A stretch of 41,274 nucleotides of DNA from Gemmatimonadota bacterium (GTDB lineage Bacteria > Gemmatimonadota > Gemmatimonadetes > Gemmatimonadales > GWC2-71-9): contig JBDTRF010000003.1 in the NCBI GenBank assembly GCA_039931815.1, positions 1-41,274 of the forward strand. Reading direction: 5' to 3'. The notes under the pieces are model-generated. The model did not search any database. It was not told the origin of the DNA and saw nothing but the letters and a program-made list of their open reading frames with translations. The first letter of the stretch is position 1, and each line of letters begins with the position of its first letter. The position numbers were made by a program, and so were the translations under genes. Positions 2,785 through 11,785 of the stretch are shown piece by piece.

Positions 2785-3023
2785 GGATGAGTCAGGGATG
2801 GGGAGGAAGGTGCCTGAGAGGTTCAACATCAGAAAAGTTGGGTAGCCGATTCATTGCCTGCCCGTCCCGTCCTTTTCCCCTGCTGTGGTTTTTCACGCGC
2901 GGCAGCGGCCGATTCCGTAACCAGGAGCCTGCGTCTCAGGGTCTGAGGAGAATTTGAAAAGGTAGGATCGGGTTCCCGGGCTGACAAGCGGACGAGACGA
3001 CTGACCAGCGTGCGTGGGAGCCC

Positions 3024-3069
3024 TTGACACTTTTCCGGCGAGACGCAACATTGTCCACATTGTGAAACA
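3024..3069 (+). promoter_or_regulatory. Putative sigma70 promoter plus overlapping palindromic operator of the IclR gene
   Basis: TTGACA at 3024-3029, 17-nt spacer, weak -10 AACATT at 3047-3052. Imperfect palindrome TCCACA-T-TGTGAA at 3054-3066 overlaps the GTG at 3062. Confidence 0.5.
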
Positions 3070-3901
3070 CCATCCCACAAACGAAGGATCCCGGCCCACC
3101 GGTACGCAGGCGGTGGCCCGTGCGTTTTCCATTCTGGGCGCCTTTGGCGATGCGAACCCCGAATGGGGCCTGGCCGATCTGTCGCGCAGCCTGGGCCTCA
3201 CTCGGACCACCACGCTCCGCCTCCTGAGCGCGCTGGAGCGCGAGGGCATGGTATCGCGCTACGGCGTCGCGGGCGCCTATCGACTGGGACCTCGAGCGAT
3301 CGAGCTGGGCGCGCTGGCCCAGCGGTCCAACACGCTGCATGACGCCGCGCACGGTGAACTCGAGCTCCTGGCCCATGAAACCGGGGAGACGACGAGCCTG
3401 GAGGTGCTGGTTGGCAGCGACGTCCTCATCCTCGACGAGGTCCAGGGCCGGCACAAATTGAGTCCCGCTCCAGTTATTGGAGCCCGGTGGCCGGCCCACG
3501 CGGCTTCGACCGGGAAGGTGTTGCTCGCCGCGCGGCGCCGGGGAGAGGGCCTCATCCACGAGGAGGCACCGGCAGCCGCACCGCTCATTCGCCTGACACC
3601 GAGCACCATCACCTCGCGCGCGCGACTCAACGCCGAGCTGGACCGGGTTTCCGAGCAGGGATTCGCCATCGCGGTGGAAGAACTCGAAGACGGATATGTG
3701 GCGGTTGGTGCGCCCGTGCGGAACCACCAGGGGCACATCGTGGCGGCCATCAGTGTTGGCGGGCCTCTGCCCCGTTTTGGACCGGACCGTTTGAACGAGC
3801 TGGTGGGGCCTGTTCGGCAGTGCGCCGAGCGCATCTCCCGCCGCCTTGGAGCAGGCGGCGCGCCACGGCTGGTTTCCCGAAAGAATCTCGCCCGGGCCTG
3901 A
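3062..3901 (+). CDS. IclR-family transcriptional regulator
   Basis: N-terminal wHTH (QAVARAFSIL...GLTRTTTLRLLSALEREG...YRLG) and effector domain (AHAASTGKVLLA, TPSTIT, GFAIAVEELEDG, AAISVGGP). Start taken as GTG 3062; the ORF-track start at 3014 precedes the -35 element. Confidence 0.92.
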   Translation: MKHHPTNEGSRPTGTQAVARAFSILGAFGDANPEWGLADLSRSLGLTRTTTLRLLSALEREGMVSRYGVAGAYRLGPRAIELGALAQRSNTLHDAAHGELELLAHETGETTSLEVLVGSDVLILDEVQGRHKLSPAPVIGARWPAHAASTGKVLLAARRRGEGLIHEEAPAAAPLIRLTPSTITSRARLNAELDRVSEQGFAIAVEELEDGYVAVGAPVRNHQGHIVAAISVGGPLPRFGPDRLNELVGPVRQCAERISRRLGAGGAPRLVSRKNLARA

Positions 3902-3954
3902 GCCACGGCCGACGGCATTTTCCCCTGTTTTTTCCCGACCAGGATTCGATTCCA

Positions 3955-4851
3955 ATGAAGCGCTCGTGGTTTCTTCTCACCGGTTTGATGGTCCTGACGA
4001 GTTTCGATCCCGCGGTTCACGCTACCGCGGGGCCCTCACCCCGCGGGTACCTCTTCATCGTGGGCGGTGGAAGTCAACCCGACACCCTGGTGGCTCGGTT
4101 CATCGAACTCGCCGGGGGGAAGGGCCACGCGAGGATCGCGGTGGTCCCGATGGCGAGCGAGGAAGCCCAGGCAACGGGTGATGAGAAAGCGGAAGACCTG
4201 CATCAACGCGGGGTGGAAGCATTCGTCGTCAATCTCACTCGCGCCCAGGCGGAGACGGACTCGGCGGCCGCGCTGCTGGCTCACGCGACCGGTATCTGGT
4301 TTACCGGTGGCGACCAGATGCGGTTGACCCCGATTCTCCTGGGCACGCCCACACTGCGCGCGATCAGGGATCGGTATGCGGCGGGCGCGGTGATCGGCGG
4401 AACCTCCGCGGGTGCCGCCATCATGTCGGACTCGATGATCACCGGCAATCAGTATCGTGAACCTCCGGATACGAACGGTTACTACGGCGATGAGTATCCG
4501 GCGTTGGCCCGGCACATGACGGAGGTGGTCCCCGGGTTGGGGTTTCTTCATGGCGCGATCGTCGACCAGCACTTCATCACCCGCGAGCGGACGAACCGTC
4601 TGTTAAGCGCGGTCCTCGAGCGCCCGACGCTGCTCGGGGTCGGTATCGACGAAGGCACGGCGCTCGAGGTCGCACCGGATGGGATCTGGCACGTACTGGG
4701 CGCGAGCGCCGTCATGGTATACGACGCGCGCGGGATTCGCATCACCCGCTCGGGCTCCCCGGTGCTGGGGGCGGTCGATATCCGACTTCACGTTCTTCCC
4801 GCTGGCAGTCTCTACGATCCTCGCCGGCACCGGGCCTCGCTGCCCGAATGA
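3955..4851 (+). CDS. Exported cyanophycinase (peptidase family S51, CphB/CphE-like)
   Basis: Signal peptide MKRSWFLLTGLMVL...VHA from ATG 3955. Motifs LFIVGGG, FTGGDQ, GGTSAGA (catalytic Ser), VDQHFITRERTNRL (His plus Arg pocket) and GIDE (Glu). Confidence 0.9.
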   Translation: MKRSWFLLTGLMVLTSFDPAVHATAGPSPRGYLFIVGGGSQPDTLVARFIELAGGKGHARIAVVPMASEEAQATGDEKAEDLHQRGVEAFVVNLTRAQAETDSAAALLAHATGIWFTGGDQMRLTPILLGTPTLRAIRDRYAAGAVIGGTSAGAAIMSDSMITGNQYREPPDTNGYYGDEYPALARHMTEVVPGLGFLHGAIVDQHFITRERTNRLLSAVLERPTLLGVGIDEGTALEVAPDGIWHVLGASAVMVYDARGIRITRSGSPVLGAVDIRLHVLPAGSLYDPRRHRASLPE

Positions 4852-4918
4852 TCACGCGTACGAATACCGCACCCATTCACGCTCACCTAAGCGCGACTCT
4901 CGTCCCGGAGGAATCACG

Positions 4919-7900
4919 ATGACACGTTGGCGAAACATATGGATCGGCGCGATTGGACTGGGAATGACCATGCTCCTGGGCGGAGTTGCCGTCGCCCAGG
5001 CCCAGACCGCCACAGTGCGCGGCACCGTGTCGGATTCGGCTAACCTCCTGCCACTGGCCGGCGCAGAAGTCACCGTCGTGGGGACCGCGGCGCGGACGAG
5101 CGTTCGGGCCAATGGACAATACATCCTGTCCAACCTGACGCCGGGGAGCCTGACGATCCAGGTCCGGATGATCGGTTACCGGTCGGTCCGTCGTACGTTG
5201 ACGGTAGCCGATGGCGAGGAGTCGGTCGCCGATTTCACCTTGACGAGCCAGCCGATCAGCCTGGAAGATATCGTCGTGATCGGCTACGGGACGGCGCTCC
5301 GGAGCGAGCTCAGCACGGCGATCTCGTCGGTGAACTCCAAGGCGCTGGAAGGCATCACCGTCGCGAGTCCGGACGCCGCCCTCCAGGGCCGGGCACCGGG
5401 CGTCGAGATCACGGAAAACGCGGGAAATCCGGGCAACGGAATCACGGTTCGGATTCGCGGCACTTCGTCGCTCAGCGCGAGCAGTCAGCCGCTCTTCGTG
5501 ATCGACGGTGTTCCGATGATCTCGGAGGATATTTCTTCGCTGGACCTGGGCGGCCAGAGCATCACCGCGGTGACCGGCATCAGCCCCAGTGACATTGCGA
5601 GCATGGATATCCTGAAGGATGCCGCCGCCGCCGCGATTTATGGTTCGCGCGGGTCGAATGGCGTCATCATTATCACAACCAAGCGAGGCAGACCGGGCAA
5701 AGGGCAGCTGACTCTGGACAGCTATTTCGGAACCCAGGCCGCCTCCCGCCGGCTCGGCCTGCTCAATTCGACGCAGTATCTCCAGTTTTTTAATGAGTCG
5801 GCGGAAAACGACGGGTATGGCGCGGATTTTTATGGCGTGGTTGGCGTGGACGACCAGGTCAATACCGACTGGCAGAACGAAGTGCTCCGGCACGCGCCGA
5901 TTGGAAACACCGAGCTGGCCGTATCCGGTGGTGACGATCGGATGCAGTATCGAGTATCCGGCAACTGGTTTGATCAGACCGGCATCGTCATTGGCTCAGG
6001 ATACCGCCGACTTGGGGGCAGGGCCAACCTCGATTTCAACGCGGGGCAGCGCCTGAATTTCAGCACCTCGCTTTCCATCGCCGGGGAGCGCAATGACCGG
6101 ATCGAGAATGATGGAAGCGCGTCGGGCATCATCACCAACGCCGTGGGGAATGCTCCCCTGTACCCGGTTCGCCACGACGGTGATTTCACTGGCGTGGGCG
6201 GGAGTTTCCCCGATGGATTGCAGTACCCCAACAGCGTCGCGCTGGCGACACTCAACACCGCCCAGGCGCGAACCCTCCGTACCCTGGGCAATGTCGAATC
6301 CCGTTTCTCGGTTCGATCCAACCTGCTGCTGACGTCCCGCCTGGGCGTCGACCTGTACGACGTCCGCGAAAACCAGTTTGAGTCGCCCCGCGTTTCCGGC
6401 ACCTATCCCGCGAGTTCCGGCGGGGTGGCCAAAAGCGGATACTCTTCGTTCAACAAATATGTCCTCGACAATTTCCTCACCTTCAATCCGGGCCTGTCCT
6501 CCACCCAGTCGCTGACGGTGACGGCTGGCAATAGTCTCGAGTTGAATCGAAGCGAGTTCAATTTCATCCGGGGCGAAGGGTTGACCAATGACCGATTCAC
6601 CCAGGTCCACAACGCCACCAAGATCATCTCCGGTGACGCCTCGACCGGCCGAAGCAACCTGATATCGTTTTTCTCCCGGGCCAGCTACAGCCTCAAGAGC
6701 AAATACCTGGCGGCGGCAAGTCTTCGGGCCGATGGTTCCTCGAAGTTTGCCACCAACAACAAGTGGGGTGTGTTTCCCGCGATTTCCGCCGCCTGGGTGA
6801 TGAGCGAGGAATCATTTCTCTCGCGAAGCCGGTGGATGGACAATCTCAAGCTTCGCGCCAGTTTCGGCCTGACCGGCAACCAGTCGATCAGCGACTTCCC
6901 CTGGCAGGGTACCTTCGGCACGGCCAACTACGGAGACAGTGGAGGCACCGCTCCCACCCGCCTGGCCAACCCGGACCTCAAGTGGGAATCCACCTCGCAG
7001 TTCGACATTGGCATTGACGCCGACCTGTTTGGTGAACGGGTGAACCTGAGCGTGGATTATTACCGGAAGCACACCCAGGACCTGCTGCTCGAGCTGCCGA
7101 TCACGTCGACCGCAGGATTCTCCAGCATCATCAGCAATGCCGGGGCAATTCAGAACAACGGTATCGAGGTGGCTCTCACCACCATTAACAAGCAGAGTGA
7201 TCGGCCGGGCGGATTTCACTGGAGCACCACCTTCAACTTCGCCGCCAATCGGAACCGGGTGACCGACCTGGCCAACAACAGTCCCGTGACCGGAGGAATC
7301 CGGAGCATCAACCGGGTCGAAGTGGGCCAGCCCATCGGCGCCTTCTACACGCTCAAGTTCCTGGGCGTTGATCCCGACAGTGGAAACGCGATCTATGAGG
7401 ACGTGAACAACGATGGTGTCATCGACTCGGGCGACCGCCAGATCGTGGGAAGCCCGTTTCCCGACTTTACCGGCGGTTTCATCAATGATATGTCGGTGGG
7501 GCGTTTCAGCCTGTCCACGTTTTTTACCTTCAGCGTTGGAGCCGACGTCTTTAACGCCATGCGTATTTTCAGTGACGCCGGCGGCTGGTACACCGATAAC
7601 CAGTTCAGTAATGTGATGAACCGCTGGCAGAAACCGGGGGATGTCACGGACGTACCGCGCGCAAGCTATGATGGGACGTCAGGCGCGCGGGAGATCTCCA
7701 GTCGGTTTATCGAGGACGGCTCGTATCTCAGGCTCAAGGAAGTTTCCCTGGGCTATGAGCTCCCCGAGCGGCTCAGCGGCTGGCTGGGCATGTCCCGAGC
7801 CCACGTCTATGTGTCGGGGCGAAATCTCTTCACGATCACGGGATATACCGGCTACAGCCCTGAAGTGAACAGCAACGGCTCGAACAACAGGATCGAGCTG

Positions 7901-7966
7901 GGCACTGATTTTTACGCGTATCCCATTGCCCGCACCTTCACCTTCGGCATCCAGGCGGGGTGGTAA
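4919..7966 (+). CDS. susC: SusC/RagA-family TonB-dependent outer-membrane transporter
   Basis: GGAGG RBS before ATG 4919, signal peptide, and carboxypeptidase-regulatory-like N-terminal domain (VRGTV...LAGAEV...IGY). Plug motifs VVIGYG, IRIRG, PLFVIDG, ILKDAAAAAIYGSRGSNGVIIITTK. Barrel motifs NPDLKWE, EDGSYLRLK, C-terminal YP.ARTFTFGIQAGW. Confidence 0.95.
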   Translation: MTRWRNIWIGAIGLGMTMLLGGVAVAQAQTATVRGTVSDSANLLPLAGAEVTVVGTAARTSVRANGQYILSNLTPGSLTIQVRMIGYRSVRRTLTVADGEESVADFTLTSQPISLEDIVVIGYGTALRSELSTAISSVNSKALEGITVASPDAALQGRAPGVEITENAGNPGNGITVRIRGTSSLSASSQPLFVIDGVPMISEDISSLDLGGQSITAVTGISPSDIASMDILKDAAAAAIYGSRGSNGVIIITTKRGRPGKGQLTLDSYFGTQAASRRLGLLNSTQYLQFFNESAENDGYGADFYGVVGVDDQVNTDWQNEVLRHAPIGNTELAVSGGDDRMQYRVSGNWFDQTGIVIGSGYRRLGGRANLDFNAGQRLNFSTSLSIAGERNDRIENDGSASGIITNAVGNAPLYPVRHDGDFTGVGGSFPDGLQYPNSVALATLNTAQARTLRTLGNVESRFSVRSNLLLTSRLGVDLYDVRENQFESPRVSGTYPASSGGVAKSGYSSFNKYVLDNFLTFNPGLSSTQSLTVTAGNSLELNRSEFNFIRGEGLTNDRFTQVHNATKIISGDASTGRSNLISFFSRASYSLKSKYLAAASLRADGSSKFATNNKWGVFPAISAAWVMSEESFLSRSRWMDNLKLRASFGLTGNQSISDFPWQGTFGTANYGDSGGTAPTRLANPDLKWESTSQFDIGIDADLFGERVNLSVDYYRKHTQDLLLELPITSTAGFSSIISNAGAIQNNGIEVALTTINKQSDRPGGFHWSTTFNFAANRNRVTDLANNSPVTGGIRSINRVEVGQPIGAFYTLKFLGVDPDSGNAIYEDVNNDGVIDSGDRQIVGSPFPDFTGGFINDMSVGRFSLSTFFTFSVGADVFNAMRIFSDAGGWYTDNQFSNVMNRWQKPGDVTDVPRASYDGTSGAREISSRFIEDGSYLRLKEVSLGYELPERLSGWLGMSRAHVYVSGRNLFTITGYTGYSPEVNSNGSNNRIELGTDFYAYPIARTFTFGIQAGW

Positions 7967-8006
7967 CATGTCTCATATAACTCTTTCCGCCTCGAGGGGA
8001 CCAGCC

Positions 8007-9365
8007 ATGCTGACCCGCTTTGCCATGACGCTGGGCCTGGCCCTGGCGTTGAATGGATGTAACTCACTGCTCGATACCAACCCGATCGATGAGATCCCGG
8101 AATCCGAGGCGATCATATCGGCCTCAGGGGCGCGAGCGGCCCTGGCCGGCGCCTACAATTCGCTGCAAGGCGGGGGGTACTATTACGACGATTTCTACCT
8201 GCTCCAGGATCTCTCCGCCGACAACGCGATCCAGGCGGATGGGGCCACGTCCAACAGCTACGCCGATGCCGACGGGAACCAGCTTCGGGCCGACAACCCG
8301 GCGGTGAACGCCATCTGGTCATCGATCTATTCCGGCATCCACCGGACGAACGTGCTGCTGCGGGATGTGCCCGGCGTGCCCGATCTCAGCGCCGTCGATC
8401 GCGATCAGATTCTCGGCGAAGCGCATTTCCTGAGAGGCCTGCATTATTTCAACCTGGTGCGGCTGTTTGGCGGAGTCCCTCTCCGACTGGCGCCGGCAAC
8501 CAGCGTCGAGGAGGCGTCGGTCATCGCGCGGAGTACGGAAGCCGAAACCTACGCCCAGATCATCGATGATCTCCAGCAATCGGAGACCTTGATGACCAGC
8601 ACCGGCGTCACGACCCAGGGAACGCCGGGCGCCGCCAAGGCTCTGCTGGCTGAGGTCTACCTTTACCAGCAGGACTGGTCGAACGCCCTTGCCAAGTCAG
8701 ACGAAGTGATTGGACTGGGATATAGCCTGGCGCCAACCTTCGGGGACCTGTTTGACACTGAAGGCATTGATACGCCGGAAGACATCTTCAAAGTACTGTT
8801 CACCGATGTCCAGTATCAGCTGATGTATCTCTGGATCACCTGCTCGGGGAGCGAAGGAGGCGGGTGCGAGCTGGCCCCGTCCCAGGACATGATCGACGCC
8901 TATGCCGATCCGTTCGATGCCGTGAACACGGATGTCCGCCTTACCTGGTCCATCATGGGCACGACGGCACCGGACGCCTGGGGCATCAAGTATCCCACGA
9001 CCTTTGGCGCGGAAGACCTCCACGTCATTCGATTTGCCGAGGTGCTCCTGATCAAGGCGGAGGCATCGGCCGAGCTGAATGACCTGGCGACGGCGGTGGG
9101 ACTGGTTAACCAGATTCGGACCCGGGCGGGTATCGACACGCTGGTGCTGGGAACTGACATCACGACGCAACAGGAGGTGCTGGACCAGATCGATCACCAG
9201 CGGCGGCTCGAGCTGTTTGCCGAAGGCGATCGCTGGATGGACCTGGTCCGAACGGGTCGAGTGGCGACAGTGATGCCCACCGTTCCGGCCTACCAGTATC
9301 TCTATCCGATCCCACAGTCCGAGATCGACGTCGCTCCCAACCTGGTGCAGAACCCGGGGTACTAG
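8007..9365 (+). CDS. susD: SusD/RagB-family nutrient-binding outer-membrane lipoprotein
   Basis: GAGGGG RBS before ATG 8007 (alternative ATG 7968), lipobox LNG-C. Motifs GEAHFLRGLHYFNLVRLFGGVP, AAKALLAEVYL, IRFAEVLLIKAEA, RRLELFAEGDRWMDLVR and PIPQSEI...QNPGY. Immediately after susC. Confidence 0.95.
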   Translation: MLTRFAMTLGLALALNGCNSLLDTNPIDEIPESEAIISASGARAALAGAYNSLQGGGYYYDDFYLLQDLSADNAIQADGATSNSYADADGNQLRADNPAVNAIWSSIYSGIHRTNVLLRDVPGVPDLSAVDRDQILGEAHFLRGLHYFNLVRLFGGVPLRLAPATSVEEASVIARSTEAETYAQIIDDLQQSETLMTSTGVTTQGTPGAAKALLAEVYLYQQDWSNALAKSDEVIGLGYSLAPTFGDLFDTEGIDTPEDIFKVLFTDVQYQLMYLWITCSGSEGGGCELAPSQDMIDAYADPFDAVNTDVRLTWSIMGTTAPDAWGIKYPTTFGAEDLHVIRFAEVLLIKAEASAELNDLATAVGLVNQIRTRAGIDTLVLGTDITTQQEVLDQIDHQRRLELFAEGDRWMDLVRTGRVATVMPTVPAYQYLYPIPQSEIDVAPNLVQNPGY

Positions 9366-9417
9366 GCCGGATCTCGCTATGTGATTCCTGGTTGGTAAAT
9401 TCCGGTTCATGATTGAC

Positions 9418-9459
9418 GAAACGCCTCTCGGAGTCCCGAGAGGCGTTTCACTTTCGTTT
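9418..9459 (+). terminator. Probable intrinsic terminator / stabilising hairpin after susD
   Basis: Perfect 14-bp stem GAAACGCCTCTCGG-agtc-CCGAGAGGCGTTTC followed by ACTTTCGTTT (imperfect U tract). Confidence 0.7.
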
Positions 9460-9572
9460 GCCCGGCAACTCAGCGGGCCAGACGTTGAGTCAGACGTGTT
9501 GACACCGGGCCACTGCCCGCCTAAATCCCACGGAGAATTGCTCAAGCGGCCCCTCTCACCTGGAGAACCTTC

Positions 9573-10625
9573 GTGTCCGAGTCAATTTCCCGCCGCGGTT
9601 TTCTCGAGTCGACGGGCGCGGTCATGGCGGCGGCCGCCCTGCCCGGGACCATTGCTCCATCGAGAATCGACGCGCCCGCGGTCATCCTCCGTCCCCTGGC
9701 GAGCACCATCGCGATCTCGTCAGAAAATGGAATCCGGGGGGTGGCCAAGGCAGCCCAGCTCATGCTGGGCGGGACGGATACGCTGGATGCCGCCATCGAA
9801 GGCGTCAAGATCCAGGAGCTTGATCCGACGGATACGTCGGTCGGGTATGGCGGACTTCCCAACGCGGACGGCGTGGTTCAGCTCGACGCGTCGTGCGTCC
9901 ACGGCCCGACGAAACGGGCCGGGGCGGTCGCAGCGCTGGAGGGCATCAGGACGCCCAGCGAGGTGGCGAAGCTGGTGCTCAAGTACACCAACCATATTCT
10001 GCTGGTCGGCGAAGGGGCCAAACGATTTGCGTTGTCCTACGGGTTCAAGGAAGAGGACTTGCTGACGCCAGAATCTCGTCAGGCCTGGCTCGCCTGGCGT
10101 GCCAACCGGGGCAAGGAAGATGATTTTGTGGACGTCCCTGCCAGTGAGCAGATGGTCGTCGGCCGGCCGACGGGAACGATTAACATGAACGTGATCAACG
10201 CGAAGGGAGAAATCTCTTCCGTGACGACTACGGCCGGCCTGGCCTGGAAGATCCCGGGCCGGGCTGGCGACTCTCCCATTGTCGGGGCCGGACAGTACAC
10301 CGACAACGAGATCGGAGCGGCAGGTTCGACCGGACTGGGAGAGGCCAACATCATGGTGTGTGGCGGGTTCCTCACGGTCGAGCACATGCGACGGGGAATG
10401 AAGCCCACCGATGCCGCCATGGAGACGCTCAAGCGGGTCGTGGCCATGGCGCCACCCAGGTTGATCGACGAACAGGGTCATCCCCGGTTCAACATTCAGT
10501 TCTATGCGGTGAACAAGCGGGGGGAGTACGGTTCCGCCTCGCTCCTCCCTGGTCAGTATGCCGTGTATGACGGCAGCCAGGCAATCAAGAAGGACATGGC
10601 TTACATGTTTGAGAGACCGAAATGA
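9573..10625 (+). CDS. Tat-exported Ntn hydrolase of the asparaginase-2 family (glycosylasparaginase / isoaspartyl peptidase-like)
   Basis: GTG start after GGAG, twin-arginine SRRGFL. Motifs SVGYGGLPN.DG.VQLDAS, GAVAALE, LLVGEGA, PTG|TIN (autocleavage, nucleophile Thr codon 10176-10178), GLAWKIPGRAGDSP.VGAG and STGLGE. Confidence 0.9.
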   Translation: MSESISRRGFLESTGAVMAAAALPGTIAPSRIDAPAVILRPLASTIAISSENGIRGVAKAAQLMLGGTDTLDAAIEGVKIQELDPTDTSVGYGGLPNADGVVQLDASCVHGPTKRAGAVAALEGIRTPSEVAKLVLKYTNHILLVGEGAKRFALSYGFKEEDLLTPESRQAWLAWRANRGKEDDFVDVPASEQMVVGRPTGTINMNVINAKGEISSVTTTAGLAWKIPGRAGDSPIVGAGQYTDNEIGAAGSTGLGEANIMVCGGFLTVEHMRRGMKPTDAAMETLKRVVAMAPPRLIDEQGHPRFNIQFYAVNKRGEYGSASLLPGQYAVYDGSQAIKKDMAYMFERPK

Positions 10626-11785
10626 CGAATGATTTTCTCGCTGGAATACGAGGGCGGACGATCGTCCGCCACGCCCTGATCGTTGGAGCGCTCGTCCTGG
10701 GTTCAACCCGCCACGCGGCGGCACAACGCTGGGTCGATAGTCGCTATCCGTATCTCACCTCGAGTGCGAATGATTTTCCAATGCTGGCCGCGCGGTTTCA
10801 ATGGAGTCGCGGGGTTGATGATTATCTCTCGCCGCTGCCGTATTCCGGCAACCTGAGTCTTGACGGCGGTCTCAGCACCCGGGGGAGTTACTTCCTGACG
10901 GCCCAATTCCGGGCTCCCGGCCTCAAGGAAGGATGGCGGTTTGCCAGCGTGGCTTCCGTCGCGCGTGAATCGCGGTTCGGGTTCTTCGGCGTCGGCAATG
11001 ACACCCGGTTCGACGAGTCACTGGTGAACGACGCTCAACCGTATTTCTACCGGGTCAAGCGAGAGCGGTCACTGGTACAGGCGGAGATTACCCGCCGCCT
11101 GGTCGGCCACCTCCACGTATCGGGAGCCGCGGGGTTTGATCATACGAAGTTCAATCCGCTGCCGGGTCCCTCAATTTTCCGCGACTCCTTTCCCGACGAT
11201 CGGGAGGACAACGACGTCACGGGACGAATTTCCCTGATCTTCGATACCCGGGATAACGAATACAACACCACACGTGGCATCATGATCGAAACCGGAGCAA
11301 TGGCGGGAAGCGGCGGCGAAGGCTACAGCCGCTTCTACGGTTCGATTCGGGGGTTCGTCCCGATCCGCGACGGCGCCGTCGTGGCCGCCCGGCTCCTCGG
11401 CTCCGCAACCGGCGGCACGCCGCCGCTCCACGCGCGCTTCGAGCTGCCGATGTGGGAGAACACGCTCACGGTTTTCGGGGGCACCGATTCGCATCGGGCG
11501 TTCGACGATGGGCGGTTTGGCGGGGAGCATGTCCTCTTTGCAAACCTGGAGGTCAGGCACAACATCATCGACCTGGCAACCCTTGGCGCCATTTCCGCCG
11601 TTGGCTTCGTCGATGCCGGCCGGGTCTTCGAGGGTGAGAAGTTCCGCCTGACAACGGACAAGGTAAAAGTCGGCGCCGGAGCCGGGCTTGCCATCCGGCT
11701 GCTTCGCTCCACCATCTTTACGTTCAATCTCGCCAGGGGAGACGAGGGCTGGAATTTTACGATTAATAATGGATGGCTGTTCTAA
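10622..11785 (+). CDS. BamA/TamA (Omp85)-family outer-membrane beta-barrel lacking POTRA domains
   Basis: Signal peptide ending AAA-Q, alternating beta-strand pattern, FFGVGN, FDTRDN, FVDAGRV, GAGAGLAIR, C-terminal GWLF. At 387 aa there is no room for POTRA repeats. ATGA overlap with the upstream gene. Confidence 0.8.
   Translation: MTNDFLAGIRGRTIVRHALIVGALVLGSTRHAAAQRWVDSRYPYLTSSANDFPMLAARFQWSRGVDDYLSPLPYSGNLSLDGGLSTRGSYFLTAQFRAPGLKEGWRFASVASVARESRFGFFGVGNDTRFDESLVNDAQPYFYRVKRERSLVQAEITRRLVGHLHVSGAAGFDHTKFNPLPGPSIFRDSFPDDREDNDVTGRISLIFDTRDNEYNTTRGIMIETGAMAGSGGEGYSRFYGSIRGFVPIRDGAVVAARLLGSATGGTPPLHARFELPMWENTLTVFGGTDSHRAFDDGRFGGEHVLFANLEVRHNIIDLATLGAISAVGFVDAGRVFEGEKFRLTTDKVKVGAGAGLAIRLLRSTIFTFNLARGDEGWNFTINNGWLF

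Follow-up and report, generated by a model that had tools for sequence, protein, structure and literature searches.

Can a SusC/SusD-type outer-membrane transporter serve the scavenging of cyanophycin, and which genes would make up such a system? The question is raised by six co-oriented genes on the + strand at 3014-11785 of a 41,274-nucleotide stretch (hereafter the window) from a Gemmatimonadota bacterium of the order Gemmatimonadales (assembly GCA_039931815.1, contig JBDTRF010000003.1, positions 1 to 41,274), which encode an IclR regulator, an exported S51-family cyanophycinase, SusC, SusD, an Asparaginase_2-type N-terminal nucleophile (Ntn) hydrolase (Asn2) and an Omp85 barrel. A sequence-only reading had named these families and joined all six genes into one cyanophycin locus; the families were borne out by the open reading frame (ORF) list, Pfam and NCBIfam, but the genes form two units and the single locus was not supported. 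Unit A (~3024-9449, +) runs from a promoter-like element through the genes for IclR, the exported cyanophycinase, SusC and the SusD lipoprotein to a terminator-like hairpin, and unit B (9499-11785, +) consists of a promoter-like motif, the Asn2 gene, whose product appears to be exported by the twin-arginine translocation (Tat) route, and the Omp85 gene. We propose that the four-gene operon of unit A is probably a Gemmatimonadales cyanophycin utilization locus for the scavenging of exogenous cyanophycin.

The first question is what the enzyme of the operon does. The S51 protein (3955..4851, +; 298 aa; PF03575 79.5 bits) scores 187.8 bits against the cyanophycinase equivalog model TIGR02069 (189.8 bits in the genome search), above the cut-off of 126.6, and just 27.6 bits against the PepE model, and it matches three solved cyanophycinases, 7uqv at 132.3, 3en0 at 112.4 and 7uqw at 110.9 bits. 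Aligned to 3en0, its triad S151 (GTSAGA), H206 and E233 (GIDE) falls on S132, H174 and E201 of CphB, which correspond to positions 152, 194 and 221 of the 3en0_A chain with its 20-residue tag. The pocket is kept as well, with Q121, D204, Q205, R210, R212 and R215 in the places of CphB Q101, D172, Q173, R178, R180 and R183. The roles of the CphB pocket residues other than His174 and Arg178 reportedly go back to work by Law et al. in 2009. His174 and Arg178 of CphB bind beta-(Asp-Arg)2 (PMC12661447). These features argue for a bona fide cyanophycinase-type enzyme, for which hydrolysis of cyanophycin is predicted.

The S51 family as a whole covers the specificities of PepE, MccG and cyanophycinase (PMC9239234), so that the enzyme might be a cyanophycinase look-alike and the operon might handle another aspartyl or isoaspartyl peptide, or oligopeptides in general in the manner of RagAB. 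We consider this improbable, with a score above the equivalog cut-off, a low score for PepE, and nine of the nine aligned CphB pocket and triad residues kept. RagA proteins are indeed among the PDB matches to SusC, and the genome's other SusC/SusD pair lies between a DAO oxidoreductase and S9 peptidases; S9, M14, M20 and M28 peptidases also flank the four-gene module in different relatives, but they stand beyond the terminator-like hairpin and vary from locus to locus.

The N-terminus of the cyanophycinase, MKRSWFLLTGLMVLTSFDPAVHA, judged by eye, reads as a signal peptide of the signal peptidase I type without a lipobox Cys, with a presumed cleavage site after VHA; the enzyme of the window thus appears soluble and would therefore be periplasmic or secreted, with lipid-anchored counterparts in many relatives. 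A lipobox Cys was seen in the S51 homologues of L013, L014, L026, L034, L036, L037, L041, L043, L044 and others, and further in L046-L048, L076, L077, L082 and L088. Since many homologues bear a lipobox and the clade of the window has a plain signal peptide, the operon apparently comes in two forms, one with an anchored enzyme and one with a soluble enzyme. Between the catalytic Ser and His the enzyme has ~12 residues more than both solved enzymes with which it was compared. The same insertion occurs in the SusC-linked S51 of a relative and in three exported S51s of Bacteroidota, and it is absent from a cphA-linked CphB-type enzyme of the same order, in a comparison that comprises G153 as its single cphA-linked sequence besides the two solved enzymes, two G131 sequences in a wrong frame having been set aside. 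Typing of cphA-linked versus SusC-linked S51 enzymes by TIGR02069 score was dropped, as the scores do not separate them.

Next to this enzyme stands a complete transporter pair. SusC (4919..7966, +), a SusC/RagA-type TonB-dependent transporter, reaches 772.3 bits for TIGR04056 (cut-off 368.25) and 62.8 bits for the SusC signature TIGR04057 (cut-off 46.2), and Pfam finds in it a CarboxypepD_reg N-terminal domain and the plug; an STN signalling domain was not detected in it. Directly after it comes the gene of a SusD/RagB-family lipoprotein (~8007..9365, +; PF07980 121.4 bits, PF14322 89.4 bits), the signal peptide of which ends in the lipobox-like LNGC. The arrangement, a transporter with the SusC signature followed by a SusD-family lipoprotein, is that of a SusC/SusD (RagA/RagB) pair. 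It is not that of a polysaccharide utilization locus (PUL), in which susC/susD stand with carbohydrate-active enzymes (CAZymes), the sole enzyme of the operon being a peptidase. No glycoside hydrolase, lyase, esterase or sulfatase was found in the operon or among the Pfam-scanned neighbours (window to ~25 kb), in agreement with the sequence-only reading, which had recognised no glycoside hydrolase, sulfatase or lyase nearby.

Is the association of the enzyme with the transporter a conserved one? A scan with one genome per species yielded 172 S51 relatives, of which the best 80 were fetched, 50 of them labelled as Gemmatimonads; no cultured Gemmatimonadales strain is among these 80. Because greedy ORF calling at high GC sometimes picked antisense ORFs (c7, c9), the six window genes were tallied in the relatives by tblastn coverage, and the ORF-based gene-cluster counts (c3, c4, c5) were kept. 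SusC and SusD lie directly after S51 in 40 of the 42 Gemmatimonad-labelled loci with at least 4.4 kb of downstream sequence, and IclR lies directly upstream of S51 in 32 of the 48 assessable ones. In the window's assembly (3.65 Mb, 79.75% complete) no more than two full-length genes pass the SusC-family cut-off and a single S51 reaches the level of a cyanophycinase; with so few copies in this genome and the same order recurring in 40 of 42 loci, the adjacency goes beyond chance. Therefore, the dedication of the SusC/SusD pair to a cyanophycinase-type S51, as first read from the sequence, stands, and conservation as a unit was found for S51-SusC-SusD, and in two thirds of the cases for IclR, but not for Asn2-Omp85.

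The outer neighbours of the four genes differ between loci, namely tRNA synthetase, DAO oxidoreductase, amine oxidases, AnmK or an ABC exporter upstream, and M14, S9, M20 or M28 peptidases, DUF4230 or PEBP downstream, so that the four act together as a single mobile module. Flavin amine oxidase genes are found between IclR and S51 in L013 (5247-8751) and L014 (5409-7217), and genes of DAO-family oxidoreductases, divergent from IclR in several loci, in L009 (7864-9180) and as members of the same cluster in L024, L040, L049 and L057; these recurrent neighbours may have a part in the catabolism of arginine or of amino acids.

The boundaries of the module can be placed at both ends. The IclR-family transcriptional regulator (3062..3901, +, in an ORF open from 3014; PF09339 54 bits, PF01614 121.8 bits) likely starts at the GTG of a conserved GTGAAAC at 3062, and its NCBIfam matches (PcaR, BhcR, KdgR) are all below threshold. 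Before it lies the promoter-like TTGACA-N17-AACATT (3024..3052, +), the -10-like AACATT of which ends 9 nt before the likely GTG (window 3024-3068), so that the leader of the IclR mRNA would be very short or absent, which suggests a transcript with no leader or almost none. The pattern is present in 25 of 32 related loci with an adjacent IclR and in 3 of 640 random 150-nt segments, a descriptive count, as the pattern was written post hoc from the sequences. A generic sigma-70 scan of the + strand found neither this nor the second promoter-like element described below, both of which were seen by eye and by comparison of loci. No consistent IclR operator site was definable among the loci compared; in L026 and L031-L033, GTTTCA/TGAAAC-like repeats that lie around the start codon are candidates for such an operator. 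At the other end stands the terminator-like hairpin (9418..9449, +), with a 14-bp stem, a 4-nt loop and a T-rich tail; it folds at -35 kcal/mol, more stably than every one of 200 shuffles (z -5.72). In 34 of 39 relatives a hairpin of -20 kcal/mol or lower stands no more than 150 nt past SusD, versus 7 of 39 control segments inside SusC. Unit A is thus predicted to be a self-contained operon of ~6.4 kb, with promoter, IclR, cyanophycinase, SusC, SusD and terminator.

Do the two genes beyond the hairpin belong to the same system? In the 207-nt gap between SusD and Asn2 the hairpin is followed by a second promoter-like element, TTGACA-N17-TAAATC (9499..9527, +), which is also found upstream of Asn2 in L094, where Asn2 is not beside SusD; the motif reads TTGACA-N17-TATTTC in L010 and TTGTCG...TATAAT in L095. 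Asn2 (9573..10625, +; PF01112 184.3 bits) carries the twin-arginine motif SRRGFL (Pfam TAT_signal 21.8 bits, just below the cut-off of 22.7). The start of the Omp85-family outer-membrane barrel (10622..11785, +; PF01103 51.4 bits; NF047779 113.3 bits, under its cut-off of 200) overlaps the stop codon of Asn2 by 4 nt, and no POTRA domain was detected in the barrel. Among 36 assessable relatives, L010 alone has Asn2 and Omp85 after SusD. A search of the genomes of five relatives located Asn2 orthologues (71% and 61% identity) outside the S51 locus, followed in L094 by Omp85, a thioredoxin-like gene and TetR and in L095 by Omp85 and TetR, and the genes beside these pairs are the window's own right-flank genes. 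Asn2-Omp85 is most probably a separately transcribed unit, an older block of the right flank, beside which the four-gene module landed.

The coupled pair itself (window 9573-11785; L094 6283-8492, - strand; L095 7889-10068) recurs in three genomes or more, and we know of no described role for a Tat-exported Ntn hydrolase paired with a POTRA-less Omp85 protein.

The sequence-only reading had taken Asn2 for an Ntn-type isoaspartyl dipeptidase like IaaA, and here the comparisons point elsewhere. Its best solved match is the Flavobacterium/Elizabethkingia glycosylasparaginase (1p4k, 198.7 bits), versus ~98-105 bits for isoaspartyl peptidases, and it reaches 107.8 bits against the beta-aspartyl-peptidase model NF007589, which has a cut-off of 567; a curated glycosylasparaginase model matching Asn2 was not found in NCBIfam. 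Asn2 T202, T219/T220, G222, R230, D233 and G254 align with T152, T169/T170, G172, R180, D183 and G204 of EmAGA, T202 being the nucleophile, and the roles known in glycosylasparaginases are those of the Thr nucleophile and of an Arg, an Asp and a Gly that bind Asp (PMC13204146). By these sequence relationships Asn2 is glycosylasparaginase-type, not IaaA-type. In contrast, the Asn2 proteins that adjoin S51 in a Gillisia metagenome-assembled genome (MAG) and a Verrucomicrobia MAG are EcAIII/IaaA-type (2zak, 244.5 and 270.2 bits).

These findings bear on the view that the six genes form one cyanophycin locus, in which Asn2 would be a dedicated beta-Asp-Arg dipeptidase, both catabolic steps would take place outside the cytoplasm and Omp85 would be an accessory. 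The genes are co-oriented and adjacent both in the window and in L010, and besides Asn2 the assembly (79.75% complete) yielded no further Asparaginase_2 gene, no IadA over the cut-off and no match to AstE_AspA (CphZ-like). Its export matches the site at which the exported S51 would free the product, and its Asp-binding and nucleophile residues are intact. It also seems to have no Trp near the position of EmAGA Trp11, the equivalent being Ser50 by ungapped extension beyond the reported alignment, with no Trp in residues 40-56; the W11A variant of EmAGA keeps 3% of its activity (PMC13204146), and a low beta-aspartyl dipeptidase activity is reported for glycosylasparaginases (PMC10206079). With Asn2 in the locus of a single relative among 36, orthologues that stand with Omp85 and TetR but without S51 and SusCD, Asn2 set apart from SusD by a strong hairpin and by its own promoter-like motif, and a glycosylasparaginase-type enzyme where the S51-linked Asn2 of other phyla are IaaA-type, we nonetheless regard the one-locus view as unlikely. 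Asn2 is a possible candidate for beta-Asp-Arg hydrolysis, unlinked to the conserved system; the placing of both catabolic steps outside the cytoplasm, as first suggested, is therefore no feature of that system and stays a possibility in this lineage.

For the four-gene operon as a probable cyanophycin utilization locus, we propose a mechanism of which all steps are drawn from family membership and gene context. The SusD lipoprotein could bind cyanophycin freed from lysed producers, SusC, energised by TonB, would pull in soluble (beta-Asp-Arg)n fragments or dipeptides, and the exported S51 would trim the polymer to beta-Asp-Arg. IclR could switch the operon upon sensing a product of the breakdown. 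The adjacent Asn2, not having been recruited into the conserved system, may supply the dipeptidase step in this lineage. A fuller version, which we put forward as doubtful, is that SusCD is a true importer of cyanophycin-derived beta-peptides under an IclR sensor of the breakdown product, that the Trp11-less Asn2 has been co-opted as beta-Asp-Arg hydrolase, and that breakdown is periplasmic, with entry as free Asp and Arg. If true, a SusCD pair would for the first time be seen to carry something other than glycans and ordinary alpha-peptides.

Several observations weigh against cyanophycin scavenging by this operon. Unlike the Bacteroidota loci, it contains neither a dipeptidase nor an inner-membrane transporter. 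Cyanophycinase is described as exo-acting, with release of a ~290 Da dipeptide (PMC10206079), and such a product might need no SusCD pair. SusC homologues at 43-48% identity are mostly not beside S51; conversely, two of the 42 loci (L048, L058) have no SusCD, and L045 and L052, with shorter flanks, likewise show none. Five of the 11 genomes of the order with S51 beside a close SusC also carry cphA. Lastly, the nearest solved SusC/SusD is the dextran utilisome of B. thetaiotaomicron (for SusC, 8aa4 468.8 bits versus RagA 279.1 bits; for SusD, 9sje_B 155.5 bits as the top structure); that the pair is nearer in sequence to a glycan transporter than to the one solved peptide transporter is mild evidence against a peptide cargo. 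With so small a number of SusC structures to compare, the best match tells little about the substrate.

A glycan or glycopeptide locus, in which SusCD would import N-glycopeptides and Asn2 would remove GlcNAc-Asn, could draw on the dextran utilisome as the source of both closest solved structures and on the Flavobacterium glycosylasparaginase as the nearest relative of Asn2. It is very improbable all the same: glycoside hydrolases, lyases and sulfatases were not found among the scanned neighbours, SusCD is conserved together with S51 and not with Asn2, the nearest of so few SusC structures is hardly informative, and Asn2 appears to have no Trp at the Trp11 equivalent.

Does the organism take up a polymer that it could also make? 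No cphA over the cut-off was found in the window's assembly (79.75% complete), in line with the sequence-only reading, which had taken the lack of a synthetase in the window as consistent with scavenging. Of 151 genomes of the window's order, Gemmatimonadales, cyanophycinase is over the cut-off in 63 and cphA in 40, in the rows compared beside a second cyanophycinase gene, so that the order holds cyanophycin producers, a local source of the polymer, as well as scavengers. S51 stands beside a close SusC homologue in 11 of the 151, the window genome included, and in four more both are present on different contigs; since cphA is carried by five of these 11, scavenging without a synthetase is no rule. 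A shorter, cphA2-like gene (~340-380 bits to the C-terminal half) is often found alongside cphA, for instance at G153:C95:10178-15698.

Beyond the Gemmatimonads, a TonB-dependent transporter is near S51 in 18 of 30 loci with other labels (clustered ORFs, Pfam), in several arrangements: SusC-SusD-surface lipoprotein(s)-M20-S51-DcuC in Bacteroidales, SusC-SusD-IaaA-S51-DcuC in Gillisia, and, in Ignavibacteria, M20-S51-DcuC with a TonB receptor and a second S51 that has a tail for the type IX secretion system (T9SS). An M20-family peptidase (~365 aa) lies directly upstream of S51 in 11 Ignavibacteria/Bacteroidota loci (L061, L069, L071, L072, L074, L075, L076, L077, L081, L082 and L084), and DcuC directly downstream in nine. 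The isoaspartyl dipeptidase of Bacteroidota is described as still undiscovered by Sharon et al. (2023), and the M20 protein appears as an obvious candidate for it. A protein of 640-880 aa without a Pfam match, encoded after the TonB receptor (L074 11024-13654, and seven other members of cluster c13), recurs in S51 loci of Ignavibacteria, Bacteroidetes and Chitinophagaceae, and it might stand in for SusD.

Around the two units of the window, the scanned flanks encode a quinolinate phosphoribosyltransferase, an aminotransferase, a thioredoxin-like protein, TetR, a DEAD helicase, a glyoxalase, a beta-lactamase-family protein and a methyltransferase, along with several ORFs without a Pfam match; these flanking genes are unrelated and of the housekeeping type. 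The second full SusC/SusD pair of the genome (L103, G000:C72, 2790-13553) has a DAO-family FAD oxidoreductase upstream and, downstream on the opposite strand, an S9 peptidase and a PD40/DPPIV_N beta-propeller protein; among the scanned genes no CAZyme adjoins either SusCD pair of this organism. The window stretch is contained in three DNA runs of a single study, labelled as rhizosphere metagenome, and no RNA run was among the sequencing-run matches listed.

Cyanophycin is increasingly seen as a widespread store of nitrogen and carbon beyond cyanobacteria (PMC9974463, PMC10206079), and no experimental demonstration of its passage across the outer membrane of Gram-negative scavengers was found in the literature searched. 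The module described here is small, cleanly delimited and present in at least 40 Gemmatimonad-labelled species-level genomes, and it therefore lends itself to testing whether SusCD can transport a polymer other than a glycan. A further implication is that nitrogen is recycled within a soil order, 40 of 151 genomes being those of cyanophycin makers, a set that partly overlaps with the carriers of the uptake module. The separation of unit B is a correction of its own kind, as co-orientation alone had made two unrelated neighbours look part of the pathway.

How does the operon compare with the systems that are known? A literature search, outside which most subscription journals lay, found no paper that connects SusC/SusD and cyanophycin in Gemmatimonadota, nor any biochemical study of an importer of this kind; within that scope the statement of the sequence-only reading that no SusCD cyanophycin importer has been characterised holds. 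Genomic prediction of a cyanophycin locus with a transporter is already in print, and the idea is hence not new. PMC10206079 ascribes to Ben Hania et al. 2017 a 'cyanophycin utilization locus' of Bacteroidetes that comprises cyanophycinases, an isoaspartyl dipeptidase and a transporter. Earlier, a TonB-dependent transporter adjoining cyanophycinase was noted in Citromicrobium sp. JLT1363 (Tang et al. 2012, PMC3400609), where, as here, gene context predicts cyanophycin as the substrate of a TonB-dependent transporter; unlike the pair of the window, that alphaproteobacterial transporter is of the classical kind and has no SusD partner, and no analysis of its conservation was noticed there. What is new here is the minimal, IclR-controlled four-gene form, widespread in soil Gemmatimonadales.

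The closest parallel is the locus of Salinivirga cyanobacteriivorans L21-Spi-D4, which reportedly contains a transport complex homologous to those of Bacteroidetes PULs (said to be described by Ben Hania et al. in 2017, Environ Microbiol 19:1134). Both cluster an exported cyanophycinase with an outer-membrane transporter and suggest scavenging of external cyanophycin. The window version differs in its host phylum, Gemmatimonadota, in its minimal four-gene form and in its IclR regulator; it has a single soluble S51 and no T9SS-tailed or lipid-anchored copy, and its operon is without a DcuC-type carrier, M20, IadA, IaaA and accessory surface lipoproteins. Of the traits of a Bacteroidetes-type locus, the clustering of cyanophycinase and transporter is thus present, and no IadA or IaaA lies between promoter and terminator.

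At the level of the single proteins, the enzyme belongs to the same S51 fold family as CphE and as CphB and CphI (3en0, 7uqv, 7uqw), and it keeps the Ser-His-Glu triad along with the Arg-rich pocket. Its signal peptide is as expected for an exported enzyme, CphE being extracellular and CphB and CphI intracellular, and the ~12-residue Ser-His insertion sets it apart from both solved enzymes compared and is common to other exported, transporter-linked S51s. Asn2 resembles the Flavobacterium/Elizabethkingia glycosylasparaginase (1p4k, 9gaf, 2gaw) in its Thr nucleophile and in the Arg, Asp and Gly kept for Asp binding; it is unlike that enzyme in its Tat signal, in the apparent lack of a Trp near the Trp11 position, in its translational coupling to Omp85, and in its scissile pair, which is Gly-Thr instead of Asp-Thr and which we take to be EcAIII-like. 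For the transporter, RagAB of P. gingivalis (PDB 6sli and others), a SusCD-type oligopeptide importer, is the precedent of a SusC/SusD pair that carries peptides. The SusC of the window scores lower against RagA than against the dextran SusC 8aa4, and the cargo proposed for it would be a peptide of another kind, beta-linked and branched.

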